From: an uncultured Candidatus Saccharibacteria bacterium
GTDB taxonomy: Bacteria > Patescibacteriota > Minisyncoccia > Phycocordibacterales > UBA1006
DNA: 64,000 bases
Reading direction: 5' to 3'
NCBI GenBank assembly: GCA_964628065.1
Contig: CAZVLM010000001.1
Location: forward strand, 9,357 to 73,356
This document shows positions 24,575 through 55,051 of the stretch, one piece after another. Position 1 is the first letter of the stretch. The number at the start of each line of letters is the position of its first letter. Both the position numbers and the translations under genes were made by a program. The notes under the pieces were generated by a model, which worked only from the letters and a program-made list of their open reading frames with translations, did no database searches and was not told the DNA's origin.

Positions 24575-24690
24575 AGTTCTCAGTTCTGGCGACACCTACT
24601 CTCCCTCTTACGAAGTACCATTGGTGTAGCGGCGCTTAACGACTCTGTTCGAAATGGGAAGAGGTGTGACCACCGTACTAAATCACCAGA
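24575..24690 (-). rRNA. rrf: 5S ribosomal RNA
   Basis: The reverse complement reads ..GGTGGTCACACCTCTTCCCATTTCGAACAGAGTCGTTAAGCGCCGCTACACCAATGGTACTTCGTAAGAGGGAGAGTAGGTGTCGCCAGAAC, with helix I closing as GTTCTGGTG / CGCCAGAAC. Confidence 0.75.
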
Positions 24691-24799
24691 ACAGAGAACT
24701 TAATGAGAATTGTGTATAATACAGACTTATATTTTCATACTGACACATTGTGAAAATGTGTTTACTAGAATTTCTTTAACTCTTTACCCTTTGATAAAA

Positions 24800-28205
<3,406 letters not shown>

Positions 28206-37433: not shown

Positions 37434-38402
37434 TTATTGAGTCTTAACAGCCACAAGTCGCGCTCTCCGAATATATGAAGTTCCATTTGGCCACGAACCC
37501 CAAAGTAAGTCATAAGTACTTACGGTAGTAACTTGAACTTTTTTTAATGCATACCACGAACCAAACGTGCTGGTATTTGAATACACTATTCCATAAGCAA
37601 TCTCAGAAGTATCCCTCATGATTTGTGCGCGCACTCCTGCGTCAACCGTTGGATTGTATGCTTCCAAATAACCTTGGAGTAAGTAATTGCCTGGTGGAAG
37701 AGTTAACGATACGCGCACTTGAAGAGTTTGCGTAGTAATACTAGAGATTGGCTCCATTTCCGCGTAATAAACTTGAGGAATAGCATCAGCCCCTGTCGGA
37801 CCAGTAACGCCAATTGCGCCACTCAATCCAGTATTGCCTGGCAATCCTTGAGGGCCGGTTGGGCCTTGGATTCCTGCAATACCGGTCGGTCCTGTCGGAC
37901 CGACCGAGCCAGCTAATCCGTCCGTTCCGGACGGACCCGTTGCGCCAGTAATACCAGTTGCACCAGTTGGGCCTTGGGCACCCATTGGACCGATTGCACC
38001 CGTAGGTCCCACCATGCCATTACCTGAAAAAAGTGCATACGGAACACTCAGAAGTTCTGTGGTTCCCATATCCATAAAATTCCCTCCCCCATTTTGATCA
38101 AGAAATACCTGTAAATATTTAAATCCTGATCCCCAATCAACCGTTGCAAGATTGCCACTACTACCAATTTGGGTCGTCACCAATCCGAACTGGTTAGTGA
38201 TACTAGAAACAATTTCACTGTAGACAATCGTTCCTGTTGATGATGCTTCATGAATAACAAATTTCAGTGTGATCACGCGATTTGCAATAATAACACCTTG
38301 TGCATCCCGCACTACTGCTTGATAATTCATTTTTTGAGGAATCTGAGATTTTAGAAGAATATGCAACATTCCCAATAAGGCGACAAATGTAATTTTTTTC
38401 AT
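37434..38402 (-). CDS. Collagen-like triple-helix-repeat protein with globular N-terminal and C-terminal domains
   Basis: A ~75-aa run of uninterrupted G-X-Y triplets ([74 protein letters not shown]) and a signal peptide. Confidence 0.6.
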
Positions 38403-39831: not shown

Positions 39832-41092
39832 TATGATTGCGTACCTGAAGAAAAGATTTCTAGAACGAAGCGCAACTGAACATACGGTAATAAAAAATAC
39901 CGGCTGGCTTTTTGTTGGTGAAGTTGGAAGTCGTATTGCACGAGGCGCGCTTGCAATCATTGCGGCACGAATGCTGGGTGTGTCAGGACTAGGAGCATGG
40001 TCATACGCTGTTGCTCTTTCTGGGTTCTTTACCTTCTTTGAAGATGCTGGCATCGGCATGTTCGTAACACGTGAGTTTGCAAAAGGAAGCGATTCGAAAG
40101 AGTCTATTTTCAGTACTGCGATTGTTCTAAAATTAGGACTACTTGCCCTTGCAATTGCTCTATTCCTCGGTATTGGACCACTCATCAGTGATATTCCTGA
40201 GGCCACAGCAATTCTTCCTATTGTTGCATTGGTATTTGTTTTCGATTCGCTACGAGGATTCTTTTTCTCTATTAGTAGAGCCGAGCAGAAAATGGACACT
40301 GAGTCGAAAGTTCAAATTGTAACGAGCTTGCTGGTAGTGGGACTCGGCGTACTGTTCATGCTCATTTCTCCCACCCCGCTGTCTCTCGCGCTTGGGTATG
40401 CGGCAGGTGGTGGCATTGGCTGTCTGCTTATTTTCCTATCAGTCAAAAAATACATTCCTAACTTGGTTACTTTTTTTTCAAAACAATTGTTTGTACATAT
40501 TTTTAAATCGGCATGGCCTTTTACCATTCTTGCGATTTCAAACATTGTTATCTTTAGTACGGACACCATCCTCCTTGGACATTTTGCGAGCGTGCATGAA
40601 GTGGGTCTGTATGGTGCCGCGAGTCGACTGGTTCAAATTTTTTATATCCTTCCTGCACTCTTTGCAACAGTTACGTTTCCAGTATTCGTTAAAAAATCTG
40701 TCGGTGAAACCGGGATTTGGTTTGCACTTAGAAAGTCGCTCCTCCTTATGACGGCGGTCATGATTCCATTGGTTCTGGTAATGATGTTTGGATCGCATCT
40801 TATTATTAAAATTTTGTTCGGCGCTGAATATGCTCCTGCGGGAATATTATTAGCGGTCCTCTCCCTTTCCTATATTCCTGTATTCATCGGAACCTTATTG
40901 AACAATGTGGTATTTGCGGAGAATAAGCAAAAACAATTTGTGGTCGCGAATATTATTGGAATGGTTATTAACTTAATTCTTAACTTGATCCTTATTCCTA
41001 AGTATCACGCTCTTGGGGCATGTGTATCAACAGTTACCGCCCTTTCGGTAATTACGGCTATTACGGCAATTAAGATGAGATTTTCTAAGTAA
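39824..41092 (+). CDS. Wzx-like oligosaccharide flippase (MOP superfamily)
   Basis: 422 aa with ~12-14 TM helices. Overlaps the preceding gene by 8 nt. Confidence 0.65.
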   Translation: MNNMIAYLKKRFLERSATEHTVIKNTGWLFVGEVGSRIARGALAIIAARMLGVSGLGAWSYAVALSGFFTFFEDAGIGMFVTREFAKGSDSKESIFSTAIVLKLGLLALAIALFLGIGPLISDIPEATAILPIVALVFVFDSLRGFFFSISRAEQKMDTESKVQIVTSLLVVGLGVLFMLISPTPLSLALGYAAGGGIGCLLIFLSVKKYIPNLVTFFSKQLFVHIFKSAWPFTILAISNIVIFSTDTILLGHFASVHEVGLYGAASRLVQIFYILPALFATVTFPVFVKKSVGETGIWFALRKSLLLMTAVMIPLVLVMMFGSHLIIKILFGAEYAPAGILLAVLSLSYIPVFIGTLLNNVVFAENKQKQFVVANIIGMVINLILNLILIPKYHALGACVSTVTALSVITAITAIKMRFSK

Positions 41093-41104
41093 GTATAAAT
41101 TGAC

Positions 41105-41134
41105 AAATACACTTAAATGGTGTATTTTGTTTTT
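41105..41134 (+). terminator. Terminator hairpin (AAATACAC-TTAAATG-GTGTATTT, then TGTTTTT)
   Basis: Immediately downstream of the flippase gene. Confidence 0.5.
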
Positions 41135-41152
41135 GAAACTAAAAACTGAATA

Positions 41153-41761
41153 ATGAGATACAAAACATTACTAACACTCATCTACGGCGAGACGCGAGAC
41201 CGTAAAAGGTCGGCATCGTGGGTTGTATTTTCAACCAACAAGCCGAATTATATCGTGCTCTACCTTGCAGCAGGGAAACTTCCCTTCTCAAGAATACTCC
41301 CACTTAAGGAATTGATGCTTAACGATATTCGAAAGATGCTCGCAGCGAAAGGTTATGTTGAATCTGTGAAGCGGGATCAGGTTTACACCTTCAATAAAGG
41401 CACTCACGAAATACACATCATCCTGCTCGGCGGAAACGCGTGGGGAACGATCGAAGAAACGTACTTGCTTATCAAGCATCTTTTGCTGGATTACCGAGAA
41501 ACCATCCATGTTTTCTCCTCACGCAGCCACTTGCCGAGAATAAAGAGAATATGGGCGCTGTTCGCACCAGAATGGAATGTGGAATGCATTTCAGCAGACG
41601 AAGATATGAGCGACAACCTGAAGTCATTTGAATCGAAAAAAGATACTCAGACGACCGTGTTCTATTGGGTGTATCGTCATTTCGGCGAAACAGGCTTCCA
41701 TATCATTTCGTACTTGAAAAACTTAATCGTAAACCGGATATTGAACCTTCAGGGCGAATGA
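41153..41761 (+). CDS. Hypothetical protein (possibly DUF218/YdcF-like)
   Basis: 202-aa ORF in the glycan locus. The family call is tentative. Confidence 0.3.
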   Translation: MRYKTLLTLIYGETRDRKRSASWVVFSTNKPNYIVLYLAAGKLPFSRILPLKELMLNDIRKMLAAKGYVESVKRDQVYTFNKGTHEIHIILLGGNAWGTIEETYLLIKHLLLDYRETIHVFSSRSHLPRIKRIWALFAPEWNVECISADEDMSDNLKSFESKKDTQTTVFYWVYRHFGETGFHIISYLKNLIVNRILNLQGE

Positions 41762-41781
41762 CCAACTTACAACAAAACATT

Positions 41782-41808
41782 AAGCCGCCTTAGAAAAAGG
41801 CGGCTTTC
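41782..41808. terminator. Bidirectional terminator (AAGCCGCCTT-AGAAA-AAGGCGGCTT)
   Basis: 10-bp stem between convergent genes. Confidence 0.6.
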
Positions 41809-41832
41809 TTATGAAAAAATTATTTAACAAGA

Positions 41833-43041
41833 TTATTTAACAAGTCTGTGGAAAATATTCCTAAACTCTTGCTGTGACTGTTCCGATGAATAATTTTTCT
41901 CTGCAAAGACTCGAGCATTGTTCCCTATCGTCTTCCGGAAAGACTCATCATCAAACACCTTGTTTATGTCGGCCACCCATTTTTTTGTATCCTGCTCCGG
42001 CGCAATCAAAATATTCTTTTCATGCTCCAAGCCTGGAATGCCTGCGGTAGCTGCAGGTGTTGTAATAACTGGAATTCCCATCGCCATTGCTTCCAAAATT
42101 TTTGATGGAGTTCCTCCGGCAAAGCGGATTGGCGCAATCATCAAATTACACCTCTTTGCAACATCCCACACTTCCGGAACAAATCCAGTAAAAACAATTT
42201 GCGAATCTTCAGGATAATTTTGAAGCGATCCTTTTTTTCCAAGCACGTAGAGCATTACCCCGGGAATATTCTTTTTAAGATCTGCCCAAATATCATTCAG
42301 GAAGAACAGGAGCGCGTCTCGATTCGGCTCATATCCCAATCGCCCCATAAAGAAAATATTTTTCTCAGTCGAATCAAGGAGTGACTGATTCCCTATCTTT
42401 GGGCCATGATGAATACATGCAAATTCTATTTCATGTTTATGAGTGTAAAACTTAGAATCGAGGAGGTAGTGGCGGTCGTGTTCTGATACCACATTGAACT
42501 GGTAAAAAGACTCCAGAACTTTAGCTTCATACTTTGTAACACGGTACCCCTCGAAAAGATAAAAGAGTTTTTTAGGAAGCATCAACTGCTTGAGTGATGT
42601 CTTATAATTAAGAGAAATCGCATCGTTAAAATCTATAAGCATTTTCTTTTTAAGATCTGGATCGTACTTGATAAAGTATTCAGTCATGCGAATTTCATGC
42701 ACATAAAAAGCGTCATAGTTTCCAACATTCGTGTCTAACCATTTTTGCGCGTTTCTGAAATGAAACGATTCTGCTTGGAATGGAAGTCCTGACCAAAGCG
42801 CAGGAATAGCACTCATGCCAAACTCTATGAGAGAATACTTAAACAAATGCACCTTTCCAAAATTCTTCTCTAAGTATTCAACCTGATCTGCTGTAACCGC
42901 ATCAATCGTTACAATAAAAAACTCAAGTGAAAAATCCTTCGCAAGTCCTTCGATGACATTGTCCAATATTTTATATCGCGTACCATCAATCGCGGGATAC
43001 GGCATTCGAAATAATGAAATAAGAAGCTTAGGCTTTTGCAT
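41833..43041 (-). CDS. Glycosyltransferase family 1 (GT4-like)
   Basis: The C-terminal ..EAMAMGIPVITTPAATAGIPGLEHEKNILIAPE.. matches the GT-B E-x7-E region. Confidence 0.7.
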   Translation of the reverse strand: MQKPKLLISLFRMPYPAIDGTRYKILDNVIEGLAKDFSLEFFIVTIDAVTADQVEYLEKNFGKVHLFKYSLIEFGMSAIPALWSGLPFQAESFHFRNAQKWLDTNVGNYDAFYVHEIRMTEYFIKYDPDLKKKMLIDFNDAISLNYKTSLKQLMLPKKLFYLFEGYRVTKYEAKVLESFYQFNVVSEHDRHYLLDSKFYTHKHEIEFACIHHGPKIGNQSLLDSTEKNIFFMGRLGYEPNRDALLFFLNDIWADLKKNIPGVMLYVLGKKGSLQNYPEDSQIVFTGFVPEVWDVAKRCNLMIAPIRFAGGTPSKILEAMAMGIPVITTPAATAGIPGLEHEKNILIAPEQDTKKWVADINKVFDDESFRKTIGNNARVFAEKNYSSEQSQQEFRNIFHRLVK

Positions 43042-43924
43042 ACAATTTACGATGATTATTTTGGCCTATGCGTCGCTCAATAAAATAGGTATAGCGACCA
43101 ATAATGCAACGAATGAGAAACCAATAAATATTTTTTACACCGAATTTCCTTCTGAAAATATCTTTATTTTTAATAAGAAGTCGTGCAGTATTTTTCCATA
43201 CCTGCCATTCATACACGTGTCGCTTTTTACGAGAACCTCCCGATTGATTCACGGCTGTATTTTTCAAATGAAATGATAACGTATCTGGAATAAGCCATAG
43301 CTTAAATCCCGCATCCCATGCGCGTAAAAAGAAATCTGTTTCCTCACGGAATGCATTACCACCAAACAACGGGTCGTATTGAACCGACTTAAAGACCTCT
43401 CGCTTCATAAGCATATTCGAATGAAGGCGACTTACCTCTTCTGGTTTTTCTACAACACGTTCAAAATACCCTTCGAAAGGAATATGAGTAAAAATAGGGT
43501 CACGATCGAAATCAGCAAGCTTTTTTGCTGCTTCCATGGTCTGATCTGCATACATATTTACTCTTCGTCCAGCGATAATATCAGCACCATGCTCTTTCAT
43601 TTTTTCAAGCAATATCTTGAAATGATTTTCAGGAAGCAGTACATCATCTTCTCCCATAAAAATATACTCTGCGGATGACAGACTGATACCAACATTTCGA
43701 ATATTAGGAAGCGTCGACTTTTCAGTCATACGGTGGTAAATAATTTGTCCTGGGTGAAGTCGAGATAGCTCATTCACATACTCTGTGGTGTTATCCGTAC
43801 TACAATCGTCAACAAAAATGATCTTCCCTACACCCTCTTGGGAGAAATAAGAATCCATTACCTTGGTTAAGGCTTTGGCTCGGTTATACGTGGGCATTAC
43901 CACATCAATAAGGCCTTGTTTCAT
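43028..43924 (-). CDS. Glycosyltransferase family 2
   Basis: VVMPTYNRAKAL...IIFVDDCSTDNT..FMGEDDVLLP gives the GT-A DxD signature. Confidence 0.7.
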   Translation of the reverse strand: MKQGLIDVVMPTYNRAKALTKVMDSYFSQEGVGKIIFVDDCSTDNTTEYVNELSRLHPGQIIYHRMTEKSTLPNIRNVGISLSSAEYIFMGEDDVLLPENHFKILLEKMKEHGADIIAGRRVNMYADQTMEAAKKLADFDRDPIFTHIPFEGYFERVVEKPEEVSRLHSNMLMKREVFKSVQYDPLFGGNAFREETDFFLRAWDAGFKLWLIPDTLSFHLKNTAVNQSGGSRKKRHVYEWQVWKNTARLLIKNKDIFRRKFGVKNIYWFLIRCIIGRYTYFIERRIGQNNHRKLYAKA

Positions 43925-43964
43925 AGGCTTATTATATCAGAAAATATGATAAGCTGTACTTACT

Positions 43965-44897
43965 ATGAAATCAGCCATCTGCCCCATTTGCCAATCAAAA
44001 ACAACGCCCCTCCTTACAAAAAGCAGCCATCCGTTGACGCAGTGTCCCTCATGCGACCTTATTATGATGGATCCGCAGCCAACTCCAGAGGAACTTAATC
44101 GCTTTTATTCCCCGGAGGCGGGCTACCACGCCGAATATTCGGATGCGTTTATCGCAAAACAGCGCGCGCAGTTCAAGCTTCGCATTAATGCAACCGAAAA
44201 ACTTATTCCTGGGTCATTACGACCTGTAAGAGTTCTTGATATTGGTGCTGCGAACGGACTATTCCTTAATGTGGCAAAAGAGCATAATTGGAACACTGAA
44301 GGTATCGAAATGAATCGATCAAACGCCGACCATTGCCGAAAAAATGGCCATATTATGACAACAGGAAGCTTTGATGATTATACCGCTACACCTGATTCTT
44401 TTTCAGTTGTTCACATGGGAGATGTTATTGAGCACATGCTTGATCCACGTGCTGCTGTAAAAAAATCTCATACTATTCTTGCGCAAAAGGGTCTCCTTGT
44501 TATGGCAACACCAGATGCCGATTCACTTTTTGCAAAACTAAGTTTGCCGATCGCTCGACTTCTTCACATCAGCTGGCCACATGCCCTCCCTCCTGCGCAC
44601 ACATTTCAATTCTCAGAAGATAATCTTACGCTCATGCTGAAACAGGAAGGTTTCGAACCTGTTCATCGCCACTCGCTTCCAATTGGGTTCATGGAAGAAA
44701 TGCGAGAAACAGAATATTTTGAAACGATTTATACTTATATTAAAAAACGCCGAGGCACTCTCGGAGAATTTATTAAAGCCTCTATCATGTTCTGTGTTTC
44801 TGCTGTTATTTATTTCATCCCTTGGGCCATCGGAGAAATCACCTTCCCTCTTACTAGAAAAGGTGCCCATGTTACCGTCTGGTATCAGAAGAAGTAA
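43965..44897 (+). CDS. Class I SAM-dependent methyltransferase with N-terminal Cys4 zinc-ribbon
   Basis: CPICQSK...CPSCDL, then motif I VLDIGAANGLF. Confidence 0.65.
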   Translation: MKSAICPICQSKTTPLLTKSSHPLTQCPSCDLIMMDPQPTPEELNRFYSPEAGYHAEYSDAFIAKQRAQFKLRINATEKLIPGSLRPVRVLDIGAANGLFLNVAKEHNWNTEGIEMNRSNADHCRKNGHIMTTGSFDDYTATPDSFSVVHMGDVIEHMLDPRAAVKKSHTILAQKGLLVMATPDADSLFAKLSLPIARLLHISWPHALPPAHTFQFSEDNLTLMLKQEGFEPVHRHSLPIGFMEEMRETEYFETIYTYIKKRRGTLGEFIKASIMFCVSAVIYFIPWAIGEITFPLTRKGAHVTVWYQKK

Positions 44898-45888
44898 TCT
44901 CATTAAGTAGTGCACTGTACTTTTGATTGAACTGGTCGATGCTGTGATATTCAATAATGTAATTGCGTAGCTCTTGCGAGAGCTGCGCTTTTTCTTGTTC
45001 ACTTTTATGCACCAGCTTTTTAAACGCTTCAAAGTATGCGTCCCCTGTTTGGATATGTACAATACAATCAGCAAATAATCCCTTTTCCTTGAGCTCCGGC
45101 ACGAGCCCTACAGGACTCGCCAGGAACGGCAATCCGCACGCCATAGCATCCATGAGCGCGTACGAACATCCTTCATGAAGACTCGGCAATAAAAACACTT
45201 GAGATTCTTTATAAAGCACCGAAAGTTCTTCCTGTGATTTTCCCTGTGGAACCACCAAATCCCATCCTATACTTCTCAAATAAATGTCCATCTGCTCGAG
45301 TATTTCTTTTCCTTTTGCAATTTCAAAACGACCCACAAAGAGTGCTTGGTTTTTCTTTGTTTTGTCTGAGGGGGCGAAAAGATTTGTATCTACGGCATTA
45401 AGGATGACTCCTACATCTTTTCTTCCGTAAAACATACTCACACTTTTTGCGGTCTCTTTTGATACAGCAATACATTTTATCGCGCGTCGTGCGGCCAATC
45501 CTTCAAAAGATCCCCAAATATAGCGCTTCATAACATACTTAAAAATATTCCTGCTTCTATCAATACGCACCGCAGCGCGCGCAAAGGTGCCATGCTGTAC
45601 GTTTATGGTTGGCTTTCCCGCAATATTCCAACCAAGCATTCCATTAGTAACACAAACATCGAAGCCTTGTTGGAGCGCTTTCCTTCCAAGGAAATACCCT
45701 AACGCCGGCTGCTCAAAGCCTGCATATTTTTTAAGTCTTACTATTAAAGCTTGTAACGGACTCAGATCTTCTTTTGAAAGAATGGATACCTTGTGTCCAT
45801 TCTTAATAAAACAATCTTGCAAGTAAAAACTGAAGCGCTCTACGCCCCCAGACTGAGACTTTGAAGATGAGAGAATGATAATATTCAT
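44872..45888 (-). CDS. Glycosyltransferase family 1
   Basis: ..FVGRFEIAKGKEIL...EGCSYALMDAMACGLPFLASPVG.. matches GT-B. Confidence 0.7.
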   Translation of the reverse strand: MNIIILSSSKSQSGGVERFSFYLQDCFIKNGHKVSILSKEDLSPLQALIVRLKKYAGFEQPALGYFLGRKALQQGFDVCVTNGMLGWNIAGKPTINVQHGTFARAAVRIDRSRNIFKYVMKRYIWGSFEGLAARRAIKCIAVSKETAKSVSMFYGRKDVGVILNAVDTNLFAPSDKTKKNQALFVGRFEIAKGKEILEQMDIYLRSIGWDLVVPQGKSQEELSVLYKESQVFLLPSLHEGCSYALMDAMACGLPFLASPVGLVPELKEKGLFADCIVHIQTGDAYFEAFKKLVHKSEQEKAQLSQELRNYIIEYHSIDQFNQKYSALLNEITSSDTRR

Positions 45889-46853
45889 TACTTGTACTCA
45901 GGAATTTTCCCGAGTGTTCCCGTTAAAATACGAAATACGTTTTTAGCATGCGCCATTGCAATAGCTCTGTAAGGATATTTTTTGAAGAGTGACATAGGAA
46001 ATGCGATAAGCACTTTAATTGACGAAGTAACTACATAAATAATCTTTGCGGCAAGCACCGTTGGCCAGCCGTAATAATTCTTGAAGTAGAACAATGTTCC
46101 GATGTATGAAGCCCGAAGCACTGCATCGCGATCGCGCACTGACGACTTTCCACCCGCATGCACCACTGATGTTGGCGCGTAAAGAATGATCTTTTTCCCA
46201 TTGTTTTTCATTTTCTTCGCAAGGTCAATCATGTCTGCATACGACATGAAATACTGCGGATGAATGCCTCCCACCTTAAGGAATTCTGCCTTTCGTGCCA
46301 TAAAGCACGCACCTCCAATCCAACCCACTTCTGTTGGCTCTGTAATCTTTAGTCGTGCCTGCTTTCGTTTTTTAATCCACGGAAAGATTTCTAGATACTT
46401 TGACTCAAGCGTCTTTCCTAATAGCTCATTCCAAGGCGTAAGATCTTGTCCATACGTTTCTTGCGCTACGCCATATTCATCGGTAATTTTTGGGCCAATA
46501 ATTCCAATCTCTTGATGCTGTTCAAAATATTCAAGCATGCTCAGCATTCCGGGCACCGAAAGTGTCGTGTCGGGATTGATCGAAAGTGCAATATCTGCCT
46601 TTGCAAGGTCAAAGCCCTGAGTAATGCCCACAGCAGAGCCCACATTTTTATCATTAAAATAAAGTCGATATCGGGGATCGTTTTCACAGTGCTCTTTTAA
46701 GTAAGCAATCGTTCCATCTTTTGAAGCATTATCAATGATAATTACCTCTACTTGATCCTTATCAAATTTTTCAACCGCCGCAAGGCATTCCCCTATTTCC
46801 TTCTCAGAAAAGTACGTAACAATGATAATAGACAACCGTTTCGATTCGTTCAT
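45888..46853 (-). CDS. Glycosyltransferase family 2
   Basis: LSIIIVTYFSEKEIGECL...IIDNASKDGT matches GT-A. Confidence 0.7.
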   Translation of the reverse strand: MNESKRLSIIIVTYFSEKEIGECLAAVEKFDKDQVEVIIIDNASKDGTIAYLKEHCENDPRYRLYFNDKNVGSAVGITQGFDLAKADIALSINPDTTLSVPGMLSMLEYFEQHQEIGIIGPKITDEYGVAQETYGQDLTPWNELLGKTLESKYLEIFPWIKKRKQARLKITEPTEVGWIGGACFMARKAEFLKVGGIHPQYFMSYADMIDLAKKMKNNGKKIILYAPTSVVHAGGKSSVRDRDAVLRASYIGTLFYFKNYYGWPTVLAAKIIYVVTSSIKVLIAFPMSLFKKYPYRAIAMAHAKNVFRILTGTLGKIPEYK

Positions 46854-46869
46854 ATATAAGCCGATTTTA

Positions 46870-47676
46870 TCACAGCCCTACTACCTTAGCAACGCGCTTG
46901 ACGCTATATCGAATGCGGTATATAAGCCAGCCCACAATATAGACAAGGTTCATTGGAAACGCTGAATGTTTTGCTCGATCCCATATAATCCTGAGGACTC
47001 GCTCATAATTCTTAAAAATACTCTCATACGAAACATCTCGGCGGAACCGATAAAACGCCAACGGCATAGTTATGGCATAAAAATTACCTAATGCTGACAG
47101 CTTCAGCCACATATCGTAATCCGCAACCATCATAAGATCATAGACTTCAGTAAAGCCTCCTATGCGATCAAACGCCCATTTTGGAACTACCGCTGTCGAT
47201 AAAGTAATCATGTTTCGAAACGGAAGAACCCACAGTAAATTTCCCGAGTATGGCTTACCCAATTCTTTTTGCATCGTCTCCCAAATAAGGTTTGAATATT
47301 GGTCCACCAAATAAGGATCGGTATAACACATGACACATGTTGGATTTGATTCTAATGCGTCAACTTGTCGCGCAAGTTTCTCATCATGCCAATAATCATC
47401 AGCGTCTAGAAACGCCAAATACTTCCCTTTCGAAAGTTTTGCACCATTATTTCGAGCAACTCCACATCCTGCATTTTTTTGAAAAAGGTAAATAATACTG
47501 CCGTCTTTTATATAAGAATCTAGAACCTGTCGTGTATTATCAGTTGATTCATCGTCTACTACAATAACTTCTCGGTGTTTATAGGTCTGGTTGAAAACAC
47601 TTTCAATTGCCTGTATAATCGTAGCACTACTGTTGTATGTTGGAATAATGACACTTACCCACGGTTCCTGTTTCAT
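46870..47676 (-). CDS. Glycosyltransferase family 2
   Basis: VSVIIPTYNSSATI...VVDDESTDNT...FLDADDYW matches GT-A. Confidence 0.75.
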   Translation of the reverse strand: MKQEPWVSVIIPTYNSSATIIQAIESVFNQTYKHREVIVVDDESTDNTRQVLDSYIKDGSIIYLFQKNAGCGVARNNGAKLSKGKYLAFLDADDYWHDEKLARQVDALESNPTCVMCYTDPYLVDQYSNLIWETMQKELGKPYSGNLLWVLPFRNMITLSTAVVPKWAFDRIGGFTEVYDLMMVADYDMWLKLSALGNFYAITMPLAFYRFRRDVSYESIFKNYERVLRIIWDRAKHSAFPMNLVYIVGWLIYRIRYSVKRVAKVVGL

Positions 47677-48951
47677 ATGAATTATTTACCTATTATGCCT
47701 TCTTGGCTCAAAATTGCAACCTGGTTTTTGCTCCTCTCTATTGCAACCATTTTTATTAAGAAGCCCGCTCTCGTCTTTCCAGTGAATATCAATGATGTTT
47801 TTTTAGCGGTAAGTTTCTTGAGTTTTTGTATTGCTGCTTATAAAAAAGAATTGCATATTACTATTTCAAAGAAGAGTTGGATACTTACTGCCCTGATCGC
47901 CTTTTTTCTTATTATAGGATCTATTATTACTTATATCGTTTTCCATAAGCTTACTACAGGAGCGCTGATTGCCTATGCAAGAATTATATCTGTAGGAATC
48001 ATATTTTTTGAGTTGTATATCATCGCGCGAAACGATACCTCTTTTACTTACAAGGCTTTTCTAGCACTTTGTTTTTCGAGCTTCTTTCTTCCTTTAATGT
48101 TTTACATGCCAATGCCAATACGTTCATTTTTTCTTGATCCAAGCGGCCACCGACTTGTAGGACTTCTCGTCGATCCAAACTATTTCGCAAGTTTTCAATT
48201 GGTAGTTACCGCTCTATTGTTTTGGTTTACGATTAGGCCAACAGCTGCAACCATGGGGTTTGTTGGTAAAATTTTATCGTTCGTTCTTTTGTGTTTTTCT
48301 ATCGGATCAATCCTTTGGTCTGGTTCACGAGGAGGATTTTTGGGCTTAGTAGTCATGCTTGTTATGCTTATTGGGTTTGCGGTCTGGAGACTTCCTGTTA
48401 AAAAAAGCTTGTTATCTGTTTTTCTCATTTTCATAGCGTGTATTGGAGGATACTTCGTACTTCCCTCTTATGCGAAAAATAGCGTTGCGCTTCGGATATA
48501 TAATATTCAAAATCCTTATTATGCGCCGACAAAAGAGGTTCCTTTCTTGGAAAAAGTTTCTGGGCAGCAAGACCGTTTCGCATTATGGCAAAGTTCACTG
48601 GTAACAATAATTCACAATCCTTTTGGTTACGGTCCTTCGTATCATGAGGCTGTTAATATTTATGGCGAGCCCAATGATCCCCACCGTGTAGCCCATAACA
48701 CTCTACTAGAAATACTCCTTACGGGAGGTATTGGACTCTTATTAGTTATCGGCATTGCATTATGGCTTATCTTTGCAAATGTTTCTATTAGAAACTCGTT
48801 TGGATCACTGCATGTATTAATTGCTCTACTAGTGGGACTGGGAGCCTCTTCTCTCCTTCTAGATTCCTTATGGACACGGTGGATTTGGATTGTACTGGCA
48901 CTAATTGCAGCAGTCATCTATAATTCCAAGAAGTATTCCGAGAAAAATTAA
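47677..48951 (+). CDS. O-antigen ligase / Wzy-like polymerase family membrane protein. The ORF track start at 47575 would overlap the divergent gene.
   Basis: Multi-TM protein with a Wzy_C-like WSGSRGGFLGLVVMLVML motif. The ATG at 47677 abuts the divergent start at 47676 (CATATG). Confidence 0.55.
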   Translation: MNYLPIMPSWLKIATWFLLLSIATIFIKKPALVFPVNINDVFLAVSFLSFCIAAYKKELHITISKKSWILTALIAFFLIIGSIITYIVFHKLTTGALIAYARIISVGIIFFELYIIARNDTSFTYKAFLALCFSSFFLPLMFYMPMPIRSFFLDPSGHRLVGLLVDPNYFASFQLVVTALLFWFTIRPTAATMGFVGKILSFVLLCFSIGSILWSGSRGGFLGLVVMLVMLIGFAVWRLPVKKSLLSVFLIFIACIGGYFVLPSYAKNSVALRIYNIQNPYYAPTKEVPFLEKVSGQQDRFALWQSSLVTIIHNPFGYGPSYHEAVNIYGEPNDPHRVAHNTLLEILLTGGIGLLLVIGIALWLIFANVSIRNSFGSLHVLIALLVGLGASSLLLDSLWTRWIWIVLALIAAVIYNSKKYSEKN

Positions 48952-48988
48952 AATAAAAAACATCCTTTTAAAAGGATGTTTTTTATTT

Positions 48989-51061
48989 TTACTGCTGATT
49001 TGGAACAAGGTCTTCTTTGCTTACATTTGTCTGAAGTCCTTTTACGGCTTCTTCGAATGACTTTTGGTCTCCCGCAAGTTTAGCTAGTTCCATAAGAGCG
49101 GTATATGATTCCGGGATTTTCGGATTGATGGCAAGAGCCTGCTTAAAGACTGCTTTTGCCTCATCAAATTTTCCTTCATACGCATATGCCTGTCCCAGGA
49201 TCCAATATCCTTGAGGATTTGTTGGAGAAAGTTTAATAGCAAGATTTCCTCCATCAATCATCATTTTTAGACTTTTTTCATCAAGGGCATTTAAAAGCGC
49301 AATTTTAACACTTCCCAATCGCCCGTATGCAATAGCGCCCTGTGCACTTACTGGATACTTATCAAAACTGATTTCGAGCGCGCGGGCAAGCGAATCAACA
49401 TCTTTCATAACAAGCACCTGAGAATCCTTACTGCTCGCAAGTACTTCGTTCAGGTGACCAAGATAGTTCTGGGTATACACATCAGCTCGTTGTGCAAGAG
49501 TAACTCCCGATCCGTAAGGCGATGCCTTTTCTGATATCTCATAGCTTCCAGCACGAATATTCAATGGCGCGTACATCTCTACTAGGATTCGCTTCAGTTT
49601 CACTATCTCTGGGATTGTTGTTGCGAAAGCAATGACCATAATTGCAACTCCTACGGCAATCATTCCATATCGTCTCACTGGCTTGTCAGTCTCATTATTC
49701 GATACTATCAACTGCTTTACCTCCTCTAATCCTAAGAGTGCAAGTAGTACAAAGAATAATAAGAAACTAATATTTACATCAAACAGAATAAAGTTATTTA
49801 CTAAGTACGCAAGGAGCATTCCTGAAAACGCTGCAACAACATACTTATTTTCTTCGTTTTTTGCCTTCTTTACCAATACCCAAATTGTAGCTCCAATTAA
49901 GAATACGTACGCCGCTAGTCCGAGAATTCCCTGTGTGGCAAGCATTTCGAGATAAGCATTGTGCGGTTTATCTGCCCACAATTCACGCTTGTAGGTATTT
50001 CGCATGAAGTCAGAGTTGAAATACCGTTCATTGGCATATCGGAATGTTTCAGGTCCAGTTCCCAAAATTGGATGCGCTTTTATCGAAGTAAGTGCCACAT
50101 TCCAATACAAGAATCGCGTGCCCGATGCCTTCTCTACAAAGGTGTTATGAATAGCATTGTTTGGAATACACACCAATAATACAACGACTGCAGTAATAGT
50201 AATGATTCCTGTTGCAAGCGTTTTTCCAATCCATTTAATACTGTCTTTTTTATTAAATGACAAGTAAATACCTGCAGATAGAACGAGACCGATGATGAGC
50301 GAGAATACTGCTCCTCGTGCGTCACCAATAATACTAATGAATCCGTTCCAATTCCCCTTCAGCATTCCGTATCCGAAAATAACTGGGTTGAAAATAGATA
50401 AAAATCCCATGATTGCAATTAATATCTTTTTCCATCGAATGTTTGTTGTGAAGAACAAGTAAGCGATTACAAAGAAGCTCATCATCAAATAGGTTCCTGC
50501 AAACGAAGAATTTCCCGTAAGTCCTCCTCCGTATGAAATATTTGAAAGAAAAGGTGCTTTAATAATATTAAATCCTGTGAATCCTAACATTGTAGAAATC
50601 GCGATGATTGAACTTCCTGCAGCAATGGGATAGAGAATCGCTTTTCGTATTGTCTTAGTGTGATACGCAAGAAGCACTGACATGATCGCGCCTAATGCCG
50701 TAATGGTTACGAAAAATGTTCCGGTTCCGCGCTCCAGGTGTCCAAACCAAGAAATAGTTCCATCTACTCCGAAAATGGTAGCAAGGATCATCACCACAAT
50801 CGTTGCCCCTATTCCCCAGGCAATTTTCGATTTGGCATACGACTTGAATGACTGCCACGGAATAGCAATGAGGCCCAGAAGTATTACCAACGAAAACCCT
50901 AACTGAATAATTATAGATTTTGAGTTAGCATAGTTATAAGAAAGTTTCGGAAACACCATCACTGATCCGAAGAAGATCGTTATCGCAATAAGCCACGGTG
51001 CCATCTTCAAAGCAATGGCCTGTAATTTTTCTATGGTTTTCATATGGGGGTATTCTAGCAT
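48989..51061 (-). CDS. Large polytopic membrane protein (O-antigen-ligase-like core) with C-terminal TPR repeats
   Basis: 690 aa with ~12 TM helices, a ..GDARGAVFSLIIGLVL.. motif and a C-terminal TPR (..GYWILGQAYAYEGKFDEAKAVFKQALAINPK..). Confidence 0.5.
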   Translation of the reverse strand: MLEYPHMKTIEKLQAIALKMAPWLIAITIFFGSVMVFPKLSYNYANSKSIIIQLGFSLVILLGLIAIPWQSFKSYAKSKIAWGIGATIVVMILATIFGVDGTISWFGHLERGTGTFFVTITALGAIMSVLLAYHTKTIRKAILYPIAAGSSIIAISTMLGFTGFNIIKAPFLSNISYGGGLTGNSSFAGTYLMMSFFVIAYLFFTTNIRWKKILIAIMGFLSIFNPVIFGYGMLKGNWNGFISIIGDARGAVFSLIIGLVLSAGIYLSFNKKDSIKWIGKTLATGIITITAVVVLLVCIPNNAIHNTFVEKASGTRFLYWNVALTSIKAHPILGTGPETFRYANERYFNSDFMRNTYKRELWADKPHNAYLEMLATQGILGLAAYVFLIGATIWVLVKKAKNEENKYVVAAFSGMLLAYLVNNFILFDVNISFLLFFVLLALLGLEEVKQLIVSNNETDKPVRRYGMIAVGVAIMVIAFATTIPEIVKLKRILVEMYAPLNIRAGSYEISEKASPYGSGVTLAQRADVYTQNYLGHLNEVLASSKDSQVLVMKDVDSLARALEISFDKYPVSAQGAIAYGRLGSVKIALLNALDEKSLKMMIDGGNLAIKLSPTNPQGYWILGQAYAYEGKFDEAKAVFKQALAINPKIPESYTALMELAKLAGDQKSFEEAVKGLQTNVSKEDLVPNQQ

Positions 51062-51069
51062 ATTTTAAA

Positions 51070-51300
51070 CCTCACCCCCAGCCCCTCTCCAACACACCCG
51101 TCACTCGCTCCGCTCGTGTACACCCTCTCTAAAAGAGAGGGTTGGCTCCGTCGAGATTATGTACCAATAGAAACTACCGCTTATCTCATAGAGTTAAGCG
51201 GTAGTTTCATTTCAAAATTGAGTCTCGATGTCTACCCTCTCTTTTAGAGAGGGACGCTCGGCGAAGCCGGCGGGGTGTGTTTGTCCGTCGGGTGAGGACA
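51070..51300. repeat. GC-rich composite palindromic element (copy E) with nested inverted repeats
   Basis: Outer IR CCTCACCC / GGGTGAGG. Inner TIR ACACACCCG.. / ..CGGGGTGTGT. Hairpins CCCTCTCTAAAAGAGAGGG, CCCTCTCTTTTAGAGAGGG and AAACTACCGCTTA..TAAGCGGTAGTTT. Confidence 0.7.
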
Positions 51301-51303
51301 AAC

Positions 51304-51330
51304 AAAAAACCGCCCGAAGGCGGTTTTTTG
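51304..51330 (-). terminator. Terminator of the S-layer-like gene (AAAAAACCGCC-CGAA-GGCGGTTTTTT)
   Basis: Perfect hairpin with U-tract immediately downstream of the gene end. Confidence 0.65.
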
Positions 51331-51360
51331 GCACATATAAGTGAGTTATTAATCCGAAGA

Positions 51361-53292
51361 TTAGTAAGCTCCCTGTGGCTGTGTTTTGAACGCGTTAGAG
51401 TTCAATCCAGCTGTGTATGTGTTCCATGATCCTGTGTATGCTGTTGCATCAGATGCAGACCAGTTAACGTTGATCAATGTAGCTCGAGTAGTGATAGCAC
51501 TTGCTGGCTGGTATGTAACTACCAACTGGAAGTTCTTTGTCTGTCCTACTGGAACCTGGAAGTTTCCATTAGCTGTTGTAATTGTGTCGTTTCCTGTGTA
51601 GTAAACAGTTCCTGATCCTGCTGCTGCACATGCTGTTGTAGCATCGATGCAGAACTGGATAGCCTGAGCTGCTGAAGCTGTTGTAGCAGCTGCTGCAACT
51701 GTAGGAACGTATGCTGTAGATCCGAACGCAGTTACTGAGAATGGAATTGTGTATGTAACGAATGTATGTGTGTTAGCTCCTCCTGGATTACCTACGTTTG
51801 TTGTAGCCATTCCTGTAGAAGAAACACTAATACCATTTACGTATACATATACCTTGCTTCCTGTTGTAGAACCAGTCAAGTATGTAGATCCTGAAAGCAC
51901 GTTGCTTCCTGAATCGTAAGCCTGGATGTTAGAAACATCTCCTGAGGCAACACTTACCTGAGCGTATTCACCTGCTGGGAAGTTTGCAGATCCTACAGTG
52001 TTGAAGTCACCCTTGATTGTAAGAGTTGTTGTTGTTCCTGTAGCAACATTCAAGTTCAAGTTCTGGAACGTAATTGTCTGAGAACCGTATCCTGAAGCTA
52101 CTGCCTGAGAATCAAGCTGTACTCCTGATGCGTCGTACAATCGAAGTGTGTTTACAACAGCACTTGGAACTGTAGCTGAAGCACCAACTGTCAATGTTAC
52201 AGGAAGTCGTCGAACGTTAATTGTAGATCCCTGTGCATTTAGGTCAATCTTAGCCAACTGTACTCCGTTTGTATTAGCTGATGCGCTACCAGAAACTACT
52301 GAGTCGTTAGAATCAGAAAGGTTCTTTGTAACTGTCAACTTGATGCTCTGAGCTGAAGCTGCAGAAGCAAAACTGAAGTATGTGTTAGAAGATGAGTAAG
52401 TTGTTCCAGACAATGGAACGTTTCCGAAGATGTTAGAAGGTGTGTATGTAAACACTCCTGTTGCATCTGAGTATCGGATAGATGTTACATCAAGTCCCCA
52501 AACATCTCCAGACATGTTGTTAGAATCGATTACAGGAAGTGCTGTAACTGAGATAACAATGTTGTTTGTAGAGTTAGCAGTAAGCTGAGCTCCTGAAACT
52601 GGAACGTATGCAGAGTAAACTGAGTTGTACTGTGCGAACTGTCCAGCGTCAAGTGATCCAACCTTTACTCCGTTTAGCCAAACTCCAACGTTTGAAGCGT
52701 ACTTTGTGAACTGGTAATCAGTTCCTGATCCAAAGTTGTAGAATGAAAGGTTCAACCCTGTAAGCTGAGCTGCTCCACCTGCACCTGTAACCATTCGAAT
52801 GTTAGCAATTGGTTTGTCAACCTGACCAACACCTACTGATGTGTTCAAGTTTCCAGAAACTGCTGAAACATTGTTAATGCTCAAAGGAGCTGATGAATTG
52901 TTTGTTGGAACTCCAGATGGAGACAATGTGCAGTTAGATGCAAGTGTCATTCCATTTGGACATAGACCTGCTGAAGGTGTTGTTGGAACTGCAGGTGTAC
53001 CACAGTTGTTCAATGCTACCTTAGTCATGTTTCCTACTAGTCCATCAGCTGGCAATCCCTTTAGGGTCTGGAAAGCCTTAGCTGCTGCAACTGACATAGA
53101 ACCGAAGTTCCCGTCAACTACTAGATTTGCACCGTTGCAAGCGTTCAAAGCTGCCTGAACATTTCGTGCGTATGGTCCCATTGATCCCTTCTTGATCGTT
53201 GTCGATCCGAAATCAAATGTTGCTGCTGAAGCTGAAACTGTAACCGCCATAGCGATTGCAAATGCAGCGACTGCGATAAATTTCTTAATCAT
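51361..53292 (-). CDS. Abundant secreted surface protein (S-layer-like). N-terminal peptidoglycan-binding (PG_binding_1-like) domain followed by a long Ser/Thr/Ala/Gly/Val/Asn-rich beta-rich region.
   Basis: Signal peptide. ..ARNVQAALNACNGANLVVDGNFGSMSVAAAKAFQTLKGLPADGLVGNMT.. matches the PG-binding pattern. Codon usage is strongly biased (GCT/GTT/TCT/ACT/GGA/AAC/TAC), unlike neighbouring genes. The 5' UTR is 667 nt. Confidence 0.55.
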   Translation of the reverse strand: MIKKFIAVAAFAIAMAVTVSASAATFDFGSTTIKKGSMGPYARNVQAALNACNGANLVVDGNFGSMSVAAAKAFQTLKGLPADGLVGNMTKVALNNCGTPAVPTTPSAGLCPNGMTLASNCTLSPSGVPTNNSSAPLSINNVSAVSGNLNTSVGVGQVDKPIANIRMVTGAGGAAQLTGLNLSFYNFGSGTDYQFTKYASNVGVWLNGVKVGSLDAGQFAQYNSVYSAYVPVSGAQLTANSTNNIVISVTALPVIDSNNMSGDVWGLDVTSIRYSDATGVFTYTPSNIFGNVPLSGTTYSSSNTYFSFASAASAQSIKLTVTKNLSDSNDSVVSGSASANTNGVQLAKIDLNAQGSTINVRRLPVTLTVGASATVPSAVVNTLRLYDASGVQLDSQAVASGYGSQTITFQNLNLNVATGTTTTLTIKGDFNTVGSANFPAGEYAQVSVASGDVSNIQAYDSGSNVLSGSTYLTGSTTGSKVYVYVNGISVSSTGMATTNVGNPGGANTHTFVTYTIPFSVTAFGSTAYVPTVAAAATTASAAQAIQFCIDATTACAAAGSGTVYYTGNDTITTANGNFQVPVGQTKNFQLVVTYQPASAITTRATLINVNWSASDATAYTGSWNTYTAGLNSNAFKTQPQGAY

Positions 53293-53483
53293 AATTAAAA
53301 TTAATTTTAATCATCCTTCCTTATTAAGGGGAAAGAAGTCGTACACGATTCAACGTCGACTTATTAGTGTTGAATCATATGTGTACTATTTTATATTTCT
53401 ATGTTTTGAGACCCACCACTATTATTTGCATAATACTGATCGATAACACAGAAACATTGTGAAGTGTATCTAACCCGTCGGTT

Positions 53484-53600
53484 AGAACACATCACAAGAA
53501 CACACCCGCCCGCTTCGCGAGGCACCCTCTCTAAAAGAGAGGGTAGACCATCGAGATTTTTTTCAGGAAGGAACATTCTTGTGATGTGTTCTTTTCTGAC
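53484..53600. repeat. GC-rich palindromic half-element (copy F) bracketed by a 16-bp inverted repeat
   Basis: ACACACCCGCCCGCTTCGCGAGGCACCCTCTCTAAAAGAGAGGG, flanked by GAACACATCACAAGAA ... TTCTTGTGATGTGTTC. Confidence 0.6.
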
Positions 53601-53959
53601 GCGAAAAGAAACACCGTTAATAACAAAATAAACAAAAGCTAAAAAACTTCTAAGTTTCATTTATTTCTATCTATTTTGTTATCAAGGAATTGGTTTCCAA
53701 CAGATTGAAATCTATCGGAAATCCACAAGCACCGGACCATCATACCATAATCGACCATTCCTTTGCAATACCTAGCCATAAAAGGATTTACGCGAGATAT
53801 TGTCGCAGGAATTGACGCTATGAAATGTGTGGAGTTCGGATAGTATATCGTGCCTATAAAAACACGCAACTTACTTGTCTATACCAGATGACGCACAAAT
53901 GCCCCGCACATTACGGGACATTTGCTAATAACATTCTTTACATTTATGTCAAGTATCTC

Positions 53960-54817
53960 CTAGTTTTTTGAAATCTGATAGGTTGTCCATCTCTTGTTCC
54001 CCTCTTTCCTGACCACATTCATTTCAACTAATGTATTCACTTCTCGTTGGAGGGTCTTATCACTGCAATCGGTCACCATCGACTTGATATCTGCCAACGT
54101 ACAAACTCCTTTCGATTTAATGACATTTAGAATTTCCTGCTTTCTATCGAGCTTATCACTTATTTTTAAAGGTGATTTTATGGTGTCTTTTTGAAATGTC
54201 GTTTTAATTTTAGATATATCTTTTGATATGTCGTTTTGATGTAATAATGTCGTTTTGATGTCGTTTTGATGTCGTTTTGATTGATACCGAGCAACCACTT
54301 CATCAAAGGCGGTGTCGCGCATGATATCTCCGGAAATTAATGGTTGAGACATGGGCACCGATGAAACGATAAATGCTTGTTCTTGCGTGGCTAATTTTGA
54401 TGCTTCGTCAGAAAATATATCTACCAACTTTGTCAATTCGTTTACAATGATATCGGCGTTCATTTGTGATATGTGGTGTGAAATTGATCCGATATGAACC
54501 AGTGATATCACTTGATCAAGTCGTATTGAAACACGTGTTAACGAACCTCGAGAAACACCCTCTTTTGATGTTAATAACCCATACGCGGTTGTGAGTAACT
54601 CCAGCGAATCTTTCCGCAATGACTCTGTAAGGGCTAATGATTTATCCATCACGTCTGTAACCAGATAAATGGCCGCCACAATTTTCTCGATCTTTTTAAC
54701 GGATACAAAGAGCGTCTTTTCTAACGGATTAACGAATAAACCATATAAAATATGAGATTTATTAGAAATGTCGTTTTGATTATTCGCATGTCCTTTTGTA
54801 ATGTCGTTTTGATTCAT
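53960..54817 (-). CDS. Hypothetical DNA-binding protein with C-terminal winged HTH and QNDI peptide repeats. Its gene carries iterated 11-13-bp DNA motifs.
   Basis: C-terminal ..VCTLADIKSMVTDCSDKTLQREVNTLVEMNVVRKEGNKRWTTY.. is wHTH-like. HQNDI repeats are encoded by ATGTCGTTTTG repeats. Confidence 0.45.
   Translation of the reverse strand: MNQNDITKGHANNQNDISNKSHILYGLFVNPLEKTLFVSVKKIEKIVAAIYLVTDVMDKSLALTESLRKDSLELLTTAYGLLTSKEGVSRGSLTRVSIRLDQVISLVHIGSISHHISQMNADIIVNELTKLVDIFSDEASKLATQEQAFIVSSVPMSQPLISGDIMRDTAFDEVVARYQSKRHQNDIKTTLLHQNDISKDISKIKTTFQKDTIKSPLKISDKLDRKQEILNVIKSKGVCTLADIKSMVTDCSDKTLQREVNTLVEMNVVRKEGNKRWTTYQISKN
54196..54281. repeat. Iteron-like direct repeats of ATGTCGTTTTG(AT): 5 copies, including 3 perfect tandem 11-mers at 54247..54279
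   Basis: Copies at 54196, 54228, 54247, 54258 and 54269, read directly from the sequence. Confidence 0.6.
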
Positions 54818-54844: not shown

Positions 54845-54886
54845 CTATAAACGACACTATAAACTTAAAATGTCTTTTATGCAATG

Positions 54887-55013
54887 CCCTCATCCGCCCT
54901 TCGGGCACCTTCTCCCTTTGGGAGAAGGCTACACTTTCGACTTCAGTTGGCACCAATAAAAATGTCTGCCCCTCTCCCTTTGGGAGAGGGTGCCCGAAGG
55001 GCGGGAGAGGGTT
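54887..55013. repeat. GC-rich palindromic mini-element (copy G) immediately upstream of ftsK
   Basis: TIRs CCGCCCTTCGGGCACC / GGTGCCCGAAGGGCGG. Internal hairpins CTTCTCCCTTTGGGAGAAGG and CCCTCTCCCTTTGGGAGAGGG. Confidence 0.65.
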
Positions 55014-55051
55014 GGAATATAAGGGTTTTTACTGATATACTTATAGGACAA

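Follow-up and report, generated by a model that had tools for sequence, protein, structure and literature searches.

A candidate S-layer-type surface protein gene of a Patescibacterium and its long, structured leader RNA

Patescibacteria, or the Candidate Phyla Radiation (CPR), constitute a large share of bacterial diversity and their envelope biology is almost unknown. Here we consider a gene encoding a secreted protein of 643 amino acids (aa), together with the long spacer preceding it, in a stretch of 64,000 nucleotides from an uncultured Candidatus Saccharibacteria bacterium (contig CAZVLM010000001.1, positions 9,357 to 73,356), which is referred to below as the window and numbered from its first letter. 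We conclude that in this Patescibacterium, which is Paceibacteria/Nomurabacteria-like, the gene probably encodes a lattice-forming major surface protein of the S-layer type, and we are more confident of the broader statement that it encodes a major peptidoglycan-anchored surface protein. The leader of the gene appears to be a structured RNA on the sense strand.

In Geobacillus stearothermophilus, the sgsE/slg locus carries an S-layer glycoprotein gene with an adjacent slg cluster and the O-oligosaccharyltransferase WsaB. Lactobacillus S-layer genes have a long structured 5' untranslated region (UTR), associated with a long mRNA half-life, as well as biased codons and strong promoters (PMC3666127), and the statement of an earlier note on this DNA that long stabilising 5' UTRs are a feature of S-layer genes agrees with this. 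For three Paceibacteria, proteins with a peptidoglycan-binding domain (PGBD) and Ig-like domains were found among the five most highly expressed unknown genes, and a role in host attachment was proposed (Kuroda et al., PMC10936435). One of these genes, PMX_810_sub_00350, is 2079 nt long, encodes a signal peptide cleaved at 26-27 and a PGBD, and gave a log2 value of 16.7 against 9-12.5 for its neighbours (PMC10936435). A preprint with its supplement (10.1101/2024.05.28.596244) describes three-Ig-domain S-layer proteins from Yanofskybacteria (GMX57981.1, 692 aa, the product of PMX_810_sub_00350), Vogelbacteria (A0A1G2QP48, 643 aa) and Nealsonbacteria DGGOD1a (UMX47672.1, 727 aa). There a p6 lattice of 13.5 nm is predicted, matching the 13-nm lattice imaged on ultra-small groundwater bacteria, and a six-Ig-domain type of 1131-1274 aa is also described.

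The window protein can be likened to these three-Ig proteins by description, in its phylum or class-level group, its length of 643 aa and its three Ig-like domains. It shares with the Yanofskybacteria member a signal peptide and an N-terminal PGBD, and that member is very highly expressed (PMC10936435). It differs from the preprint proteins in that its clade has Thr, Ser, Asn, Ala and Gly instead of nearly all acidic residues. The protein family and its likely role are already in the literature. What appears to be new is a covarying leader RNA of several hundred nucleotides with no match in Rfam, its tandem promoter-like elements, a regulator-like neighbour, a linkage to a Wzy_C cluster and the contrast with an otherwise leaderless genome poor in Shine-Dalgarno (SD) sequences; the accessible part of the preprint contained no mention of a leader RNA, codon bias or glycosylation-cluster synteny. 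The parts of the protein and its coding sequence are as follows.

51361 to 53292, minus strand: coding sequence of the 643-aa candidate S-layer protein, from the list of open reading frames (ORFs), with a TAA stop at 51361-51363.
53224 to 53292, minus strand: Sec-type signal peptide, aa 1-23, read from the sequence as MIKKFIAVAAFAIAMAVTVSASA with the cleavage site before AT.
53008 to 53205, minus strand: PG_binding_1, a three-helix peptidoglycan-binding domain, aa ~30-95 (Pfam/NCBIfam and AlphaFold2).
52891 to 53007, minus strand: disordered linker rich in Cys, Pro, Thr and Ser, aa ~96-134, with a predicted local distance difference test score (pLDDT) of ~40 over aa 100-130.
51364 to 52890, minus strand: three beta-sandwich (Ig-like) domains, aa ~135-290, 305-480 and 481-643 (AlphaFold2).

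The signal peptide was recognised by eye, from an n-region rich in Lys, a core of hydrophobic residues and the motif A-S-A; pLDDT is <50 over aa 1-22, and the N-termini of all homologues are equivalent to it. PG_binding_1 is the sole Pfam/NCBIfam domain of the protein (aa 43-94, E 7.8e-9). The earlier note had proposed a secreted protein that starts with a PG_binding_1-like domain and continues as a probably beta-rich region rich in Ser, Thr, Ala, Gly, Val and Asn, and this description was borne out: those six residues make up 417 of the 643 positions, with a single Glu and a single His, and the AlphaFold2 model, built with 66 homologues, has a mean pLDDT of 87 and an all-beta region mostly above 90. 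The note had also asked for structure prediction as a check for Ig-like repeats, and the model yields three beta-sandwiches. The matches to their folds are of the generic Ig-like, cohesin or Calx-beta kinds only.

About 60 full-length homologues, at 41-67% identity, come from metagenome-assembled genomes of Nomurabacteria/Paceibacterota. A search with the beta module alone (aa 131-643) extends the family to 517 representatives of 50%-identity clusters, with E <= 1e-10 for 331, and nearly all are 620-730 aa long with the matched part beginning at about residue 150-200; the family profile also picks up PGBD proteins of 1050-1290 aa (E 1e-13 to 1e-28). Among 60 sampled distant members, 56 carry PG_binding_1, three (P0089, P0205 and P0181) have unrecognised N-terminal regions ahead of the beta module, and one carries S-layer homology (SLH) domains. 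This last protein, P0119 (723 aa, from a Logan contig), has two SLH stretches (E 8.7e-22) in place of PG_binding_1 ahead of the same beta module (E 3e-29), which is the canonical layout of SLH S-layer proteins, whereas the window protein gave no SLH match in Pfam and has PG_binding_1 as its anchor. At the position of the linker, relatives have CxxGxS/T repeats. Because relatives exchange their N-termini in this way, the wall anchor is replaceable and the 500-residue module is the conserved functional part; we propose that its three Ig-like domains, as modelled, form the lattice and are exposed at the surface.

The genes surrounding this locus are arranged in a conserved manner. The contig scan for orthologues was made with the protein alignment A2, which gave 11 loci; a single protein as query matched nothing. 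The relevant neighbours in the window are listed below.

53960 to 54817, minus strand: upstream co-oriented gene of 285 aa with a C-terminal region resembling a winged helix-turn-helix (wHTH), on weak matches; a candidate dedicated regulator.
47575 to 51061: two Wzy_C membrane proteins, similar to O-antigen ligases or O-oligosaccharyltransferases (Pfam E 6.8e-16 and 3.3e-16).
38536 to 46853: glycan-assembly genes for a Bac_transf initiating transferase, a Polysacc_synt flippase, two GT4 and two GT2 glycosyltransferases and a methyltransferase (Pfam).

In eight distinct loci with genes called, RecA, a Glucodextran_B-like gene and FtsK lie on one strand, followed by a divergent ORF of 205-298 aa with a weak wHTH signature, a spacer of 543-775 nt, the surface-protein gene, one or two Wzy_C genes and glycosyltransferases. 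One to three small ORFs are sometimes inserted between the surface-protein gene and Wzy_C. At this position an ORF of 77 aa and, after it, one with a HicA-toxin domain, likely to be a toxin-antitoxin pair, or other small ORFs were observed (L001 8918-9393 and L033 5152-5630).

All four kinds of gene found in slg-type clusters are present beside the structural gene according to Pfam, and the adjacency of Wzy_C is conserved. As in the sgsE/slg locus, a gene for a Ser/Thr-rich structural protein is followed directly by a Wzy_C-family protein and then by an initiating transferase, a flippase and glycosyltransferases. The Wzy_C proteins of the window differ in carrying tetratricopeptide repeats (TPRs), found at the C-terminus of the proximal protein (48989-51061, minus strand), and they could instead polymerise or ligate a wall glycopolymer; glycosylation of the surface protein is predicted from the genes.

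A different function has been suggested for proteins of this kind, and it is the strongest alternative. Kuroda et al. (PMC10936435) read the highly expressed PGBD/Ig-like proteins of three Paceibacteria as host-attachment factors. On this view the window protein would be an adhesin or another protein for host interaction, anchored to the wall of an episymbiont and strongly expressed, and its Ig-like domains would bind the host cell rather than form a lattice. Patescibacteria are commonly episymbionts and the fold matches include the adhesins and pilins Bap, AgI/II, RrgB and Als. However, adhesins usually vary in repeat number, whereas here architecture and length are uniform over hundreds of 50%-identity clusters, and the synteny is conserved with the housekeeping genes FtsK and RecA and with the glycan cluster. 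Moreover, one relative is SLH-anchored, and lattices are predicted for the three-Ig type in the preprint (10.1101/2024.05.28.596244). We therefore regard an exclusive role in adhesion as rather unlikely, while recognising that lattice and host-attachment roles can coexist.

The earlier note had further drawn attention to a codon usage unlike that of the neighbouring genes, and this was confirmed quantitatively. The effective number of codons (Nc) of the surface-protein gene is 31.5, the lowest of 56 window genes (median 49.8), and the gene departs most from the pooled codon usage (chi2 426 over 630 codons, 56 ORFs). Of the codons that had been named as dominant, GCT, GTT, TCT and GGA are indeed enriched, whereas Thr codons are mostly ACA (0.82) rather than ACT. 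The T content at third positions (T3) is ordinary. The GC content at third positions (GC3) is ordinary too and equals that of the genome. The strongest bias lies in C-ending or G-ending two-fold codons, with values, against those of the comparison set, of 0.96 vs 0.37 for TAC, 0.81 vs 0.38 for AAC, 0.75 vs 0.37 for TTC, 1.00 vs 0.52 for CAG and 0.82 vs 0.42 for AAG.

A comparison with ribosomal-protein genes had been proposed in the same note. When genes were scored with the codon weights of the surface-protein gene, L7/L12, L10 and S6 took ranks 3-5 among the 56, and SecD, RecA and EF-P came after them; by our own arithmetic, the chance of three specified genes falling within ranks 2-5 among the other 55 is roughly 1.5e-4. 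Ten closer orthologues (L001-L015) show Nc values of 32-45, nine of them at 32-36, compared with neighbour medians of 46-55, and 0.66-0.92 of their Tyr, Asn and Phe codons end in C compared with 0.28-0.41. The bias is weak in the distant homologues L016 and L028. Since it is shared by orthologues and runs in the direction of ribosomal proteins, we attribute it to translational selection on a very highly expressed gene and not to horizontal transfer. Internal repeats were considered as a source of the codon bias and ruled out, because repeats within the coding sequence are only short and imperfect.

Upstream from the gene, the spacer contains the following elements.

53293 to 53959, minus strand: intergenic spacer of 667 nt.
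53293 to 53732, minus strand: core of the 5' leader with conserved structure, comprising helices H1-H12 (RNAalifold, six species).
53485 to 53591, minus strand: long hairpin H5 with a 19-bp stem in the window, including a 17-nt perfect inverted repeat.
53504 to 53572 (core 53525-53543), minus strand: palindromic repeat forming a lineage-specific insertion in the tip of H5; the closest relative, L031, lacks it.

The upstream RNA, folded over 670 nt, has a predicted energy of -232.8 kcal/mol compared with -155.7 +/- 5.6 for shuffled sequences (z = -13.9). Its sequence is conserved in the clade of the window (clade A), though the proteins are only 50-67% identical. RNAalifold on six species of this clade gave 91 pairs, 30 of them with compensatory changes, and 90.8% of the cells are paired as against 40-47% when the partners are slid; in the H5 stem, compensatory changes affect 10 of the 19 pairs across species. 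In the sister clade (clade B), 15 sequences of the 3' 190 nt of the leader yielded 34 pairs, 12 of them compensatory, with 96.8% of cells paired against 31-44% when slid and one 60-nt block nearly invariant. G-U cells exceed C-A cells by 67:9 and 80:4. This speaks for an RNA on the strand of the gene, though part of the asymmetry comes from having predicted the structure on that strand. In Rfam the spacer matched no family at gathering score, and relaxing the threshold to E<=1 over 51000-54100 brought up no credible match.

A covariance model of the clade-B leader recovers all clade-B leaders (E 1e-37 to 1e-43) and L004 (2e-17); it does not recover leaders of the window's clade, the best being L032 with E 0.09. 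Blocks shared by the sequences of L004 and L032 suggest that the two leader types may be homologous. Hairpin loops carry repeated motifs, CGACGG in the window's clade and UUGUCGA in the sister clade, each present twice. In clade-B leaders of several species (L011-L014, L019 and L022; alignment A4, columns ~840-870), a palindrome, CACATACTATATATAGTATGTG, was observed at the tip of a variable hairpin; it may serve to bind a protein, or it may be one more small mobile palindrome.

The start region and the putative promoters comprise the following elements.

53291 to 53314, minus strand: all-A/U palindrome AUGAUUAAAA-UUAA-UUUUAAUUAU, which takes in the AU of the start codon (alignments A6 and A7).
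53315 to 53322, minus strand: SD-like sequence AAGGAAGG, 23-30 nt 5' of the AUG, partly paired with CCCCUU (sequence; helices 10 and 11).
53739 to 53768, minus strand: promoter-like element P2 from a scan, TTGCAA-18 nt-TATGAT, in which TG precedes the TATGAT (TGgTATGAT) as in an extended -10.
53905 to 53952, minus strand: promoter-like element P1, TTGACA in an inverted repeat TGACA-N13-TGTTA, with a conserved GTAATG box downstream of it (alignments A3 and A6).

All clade-A sequences agree from -19 up to the AUG, and nine of the ten pairs of helix 12 never vary. The SD-like sequence lies too far from the AUG for a normal SD. P2 is kept as TTGCAT...TGGTACGAT in six loci (L001, L002, L006, L031, L033 and L034), while P1, judged from its sequence, is possibly an operator with a distal promoter. 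From the positions of P1 and P2 it follows that the leader is ~610 or ~440 nt long. The earlier note had described a 667-nt structured leader; the spacer does measure exactly 667 nt and is structured, as the z value above indicates, whereas the leader proper is probably restricted to 440-610 nt.

A long leader is at odds with the remainder of the genome. An SD-like motif at -16 to -7 occurs in only 3 of 46 window genes, and a TATAAT box (>=5/6) ends 4-12 nt before the ATG in 15 of 45, with a peak at 6-9 nt, which suggests that many mRNAs of this genome are leaderless. Since SD sequences are rare and many gene starts are of the leaderless type, the long leader is exceptional here.

The slpA genes of L. 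acidophilus and L. crispatus resemble the window gene in having a long structured 5' UTR (a putative one in the window), codon bias, strong promoters (promoter-like elements in the window) and a strong terminator, and in encoding a two-part protein with a wall-binding and a self-assembly domain (PMC3666127). The window leader is several-fold longer, has at least 10 conserved helices and lacks a recognisable SD, in a genome where many mRNAs are apparently leaderless, and the anchor is PG_binding_1 rather than of the SLH or Lactobacillus type.

Downstream from the gene, two elements were located.

51293 to 51330, minus strand: intrinsic terminator CAAAAAACCGCC-TTCG-GGCGGTTTTTTG followed by TTTG (scan).
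51088 to 51284: two copies of the palindromic repeat in inverted orientation on either side of a central hairpin, in the interval from the terminator to the gene that follows.

The perfect terminator reported earlier is indeed there (51330 to 51303): its 12-bp stem is without mismatch, the loop is TTCG and a T-run follows. All genomic orthologues examined have the same kind of terminator, with A-tract, GC-rich stem and T-tract, 30-75 nt past the stop, and the scan detected none between leader and coding sequence.

Ten short JGI/Logan contigs (2.1-2.7 kb) hold the complete gene with 110-549 nt 5' of the start and only 3-42 nt past the stop, always ending just short of the conserved terminator. 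Five of the ten 5' ends fall within ~25 alignment columns, 30-50 nt downstream of the conserved TGTAATAT box. The 5' flank is longer than the 3' flank in all ten, for which we calculate P ~0.001 with random ends. We read these contigs as monocistronic transcripts because random ends of metagenomic contigs would not be so asymmetric. The contig of P0001, encoding a protein 93% identical, breaks off at the 5' end of the gene and is uninformative on the start site.

The palindromic repeat, CCCTCTCT-N4-GAGAGGG, is found at 51123, 51235, 53525, 12228 and 12283, with 11 matches against 0.03 expected. The earlier note had the gene flanked by this family, which is too simple, since the copy at 53525 lies inside the leader. 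In L001 (5221-6000) the tip of H5 holds a different GC-rich palindromic repeat, and elements resembling miniature inverted-repeat transposable elements (MITEs) or repetitive extragenic palindromic (REP) sequences seem to be tolerated in the H5 loop or to insert there by preference. A match to a miRNA precursor in 51088 to 51284 (E 0.008, far below the gathering score) was rejected as spurious, reflecting the long hairpin.

Such repeats in and around the locus, together with a local flip of the GC skew and the failure of the clade-B leader model to find the window leader, could be taken to mean that the unusual codons stem from recent horizontal acquisition and that the leader is either a small RNA gene of its own or a mere spacer occupied by mobile palindromic repeats. 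We judge this quite improbable, given that the bias is found in orthologues of 10 genomes with conserved synteny and runs in the ribosomal-protein direction, with the GC3 of the genome, that the repeat is a single hairpin-tip insertion absent in the closest relative while the remaining spacer is conserved with compensatory changes, and that transcript-like contigs hold leader and coding sequence together with no terminator between them. The idea of a peptidoglycan hydrolase or cell-wall lytic enzyme, which arises from homologues annotated as 'peptidoglycan hydrolase-like protein' or 'Cell wall lytic activity' and from PG_binding_1 being typical of lytic enzymes (SleB, endolysins, L,D-transpeptidases), is hardly credible, as Pfam/NCBIfam detected no catalytic domain (amidase, transglycosylase, peptidase or L,D-transpeptidase) in the protein and its structural matches to lytic enzymes are confined to the binding domain.

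The proposal in the earlier note of an S-layer or major surface protein is, therefore, supported by architecture, codon bias, synteny, leader, the SLH-anchored relative and the literature. Some considerations weigh against it. For this organism the case is built on sequence, predicted structure, proxies and published relatives. There was no solved S-layer protein among the structural matches of the beta domains, and acidic residues are nearly gone in the clade of the 643-aa protein, unlike typical acidic S-layer proteins and most relatives. GMX57981.1, A0A1G2QP48 and UMX47672.1 were not among the family cluster members inspected, so that the likeness to them is one of description. Weak or ambiguous -10 and -35 boxes make the length of the UTR uncertain, and the strand asymmetry of the leader carries the built-in component mentioned above. 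The putative transcript nature of the contigs is judged from their geometry, and a full-text search for the JGI/ENA sample identifiers found nothing on a metatranscriptome origin.

For the S-layer-type protein, the following sequence of events can be envisaged. The protein would be exported by Sec and held on the cell's own peptidoglycan by its N-terminal PG_binding_1 domain, with the flexible Cys/Pro/Thr linker spacing it from the wall. The three Ig-like beta-sandwich domains would then form the exposed layer, probably a hexagonal lattice and probably O-glycosylated by the products of the adjoining Wzy_C/glycosyltransferase cluster. Very high output would be achieved by one or two conserved promoters, a monocistronic mRNA ended by a strong terminator, translationally optimal codons and a leader of 440-610 nt locked in conserved helices. 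The leader would most likely shield the mRNA from decay, and it would leave only the A/U-rich, SD-less start region open to ribosomes. Among these elements, the present data show the architecture of the protein, the codon bias with its direction and conservation, the conserved synteny and terminator, and the structure and covariation of the leader; we infer the lattice, its glycosylation, the transcription start site, the stabilisation of the mRNA and regulation by the wHTH protein.

A more far-reaching interpretation, which we put forward tentatively as possible rather than likely, is that the leader constitutes a new class of cis-regulatory RNA coupling synthesis of the most abundant envelope protein of the cell to envelope growth. 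One possible mechanism is that the S-layer protein or the wHTH protein binds the repeated hairpin-loop motifs in feedback. The leader would, in addition, direct SD-independent initiation at the invariant A/U palindrome.

Several further observations concern the neighbouring genes. A 13-mer, ATCAAAACGACAT, which encodes H/N-Q-N-D-I, occurs on the coding strand of the wHTH-like gene in six exact copies and one with a single mismatch, at 54196-54281 and 54768-54813, and there is no other copy at 0-1 mismatches in the 64 kb. In orthologous loci the same sequence forms an inverted-repeat terminator hairpin just 3' of the wHTH-like gene. The HTH protein may use this motif as its operator. The longest ORF for FtsK (809 aa, plus strand) begins ~56 codons early; in 54884-55050 it runs through a degenerate palindromic repeat (54972-54990), which gives it an odd N-terminus (...PLPLGEGARRAGEGW); the true start is probably MAKKDLKQ because orthologues are 712-749 aa long.

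Adjoining the glycan cluster, a gene on the minus strand (37434-38402) encodes a secreted protein of 322 aa with collagen triple-helix repeats (Pfam E 1.2e-13). Further away on the same strand, tandem paralogues of 511 and 523 aa, predicted to be secreted (31039-32574 and 32610-34181), are nearly identical over their first ~40 residues (MKKKLTLAVFA.AV.TAGAFLVVKNYQGSNAASLYRAVAV), and a 23S rRNA gene with a group I intron (25122-25338) adjoins a 5S rRNA gene (24584-28189). No tRNA genes were detected in the 64 kb. Both this rRNA arrangement and the Nomurabacteria/Paceibacterota origin of the homologues go with a genome of Patescibacteria type.

For the biology of these organisms, the results place a probable S-layer structural gene at a conserved locus, where a regulator-like gene and a long leader come before it and a glycosylation cluster after it. 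They also indicate that an S-layer candidate can be recognised from DNA alone, by extreme codon bias in the ribosomal direction, a long structured leader where leaders are otherwise lacking and a strong terminator. The leader itself offers a way into the question of how a minimal bacterium with few SD sequences raises a single mRNA to very high output, and it could serve as an expression element in the genetic tools now emerging for the phylum.

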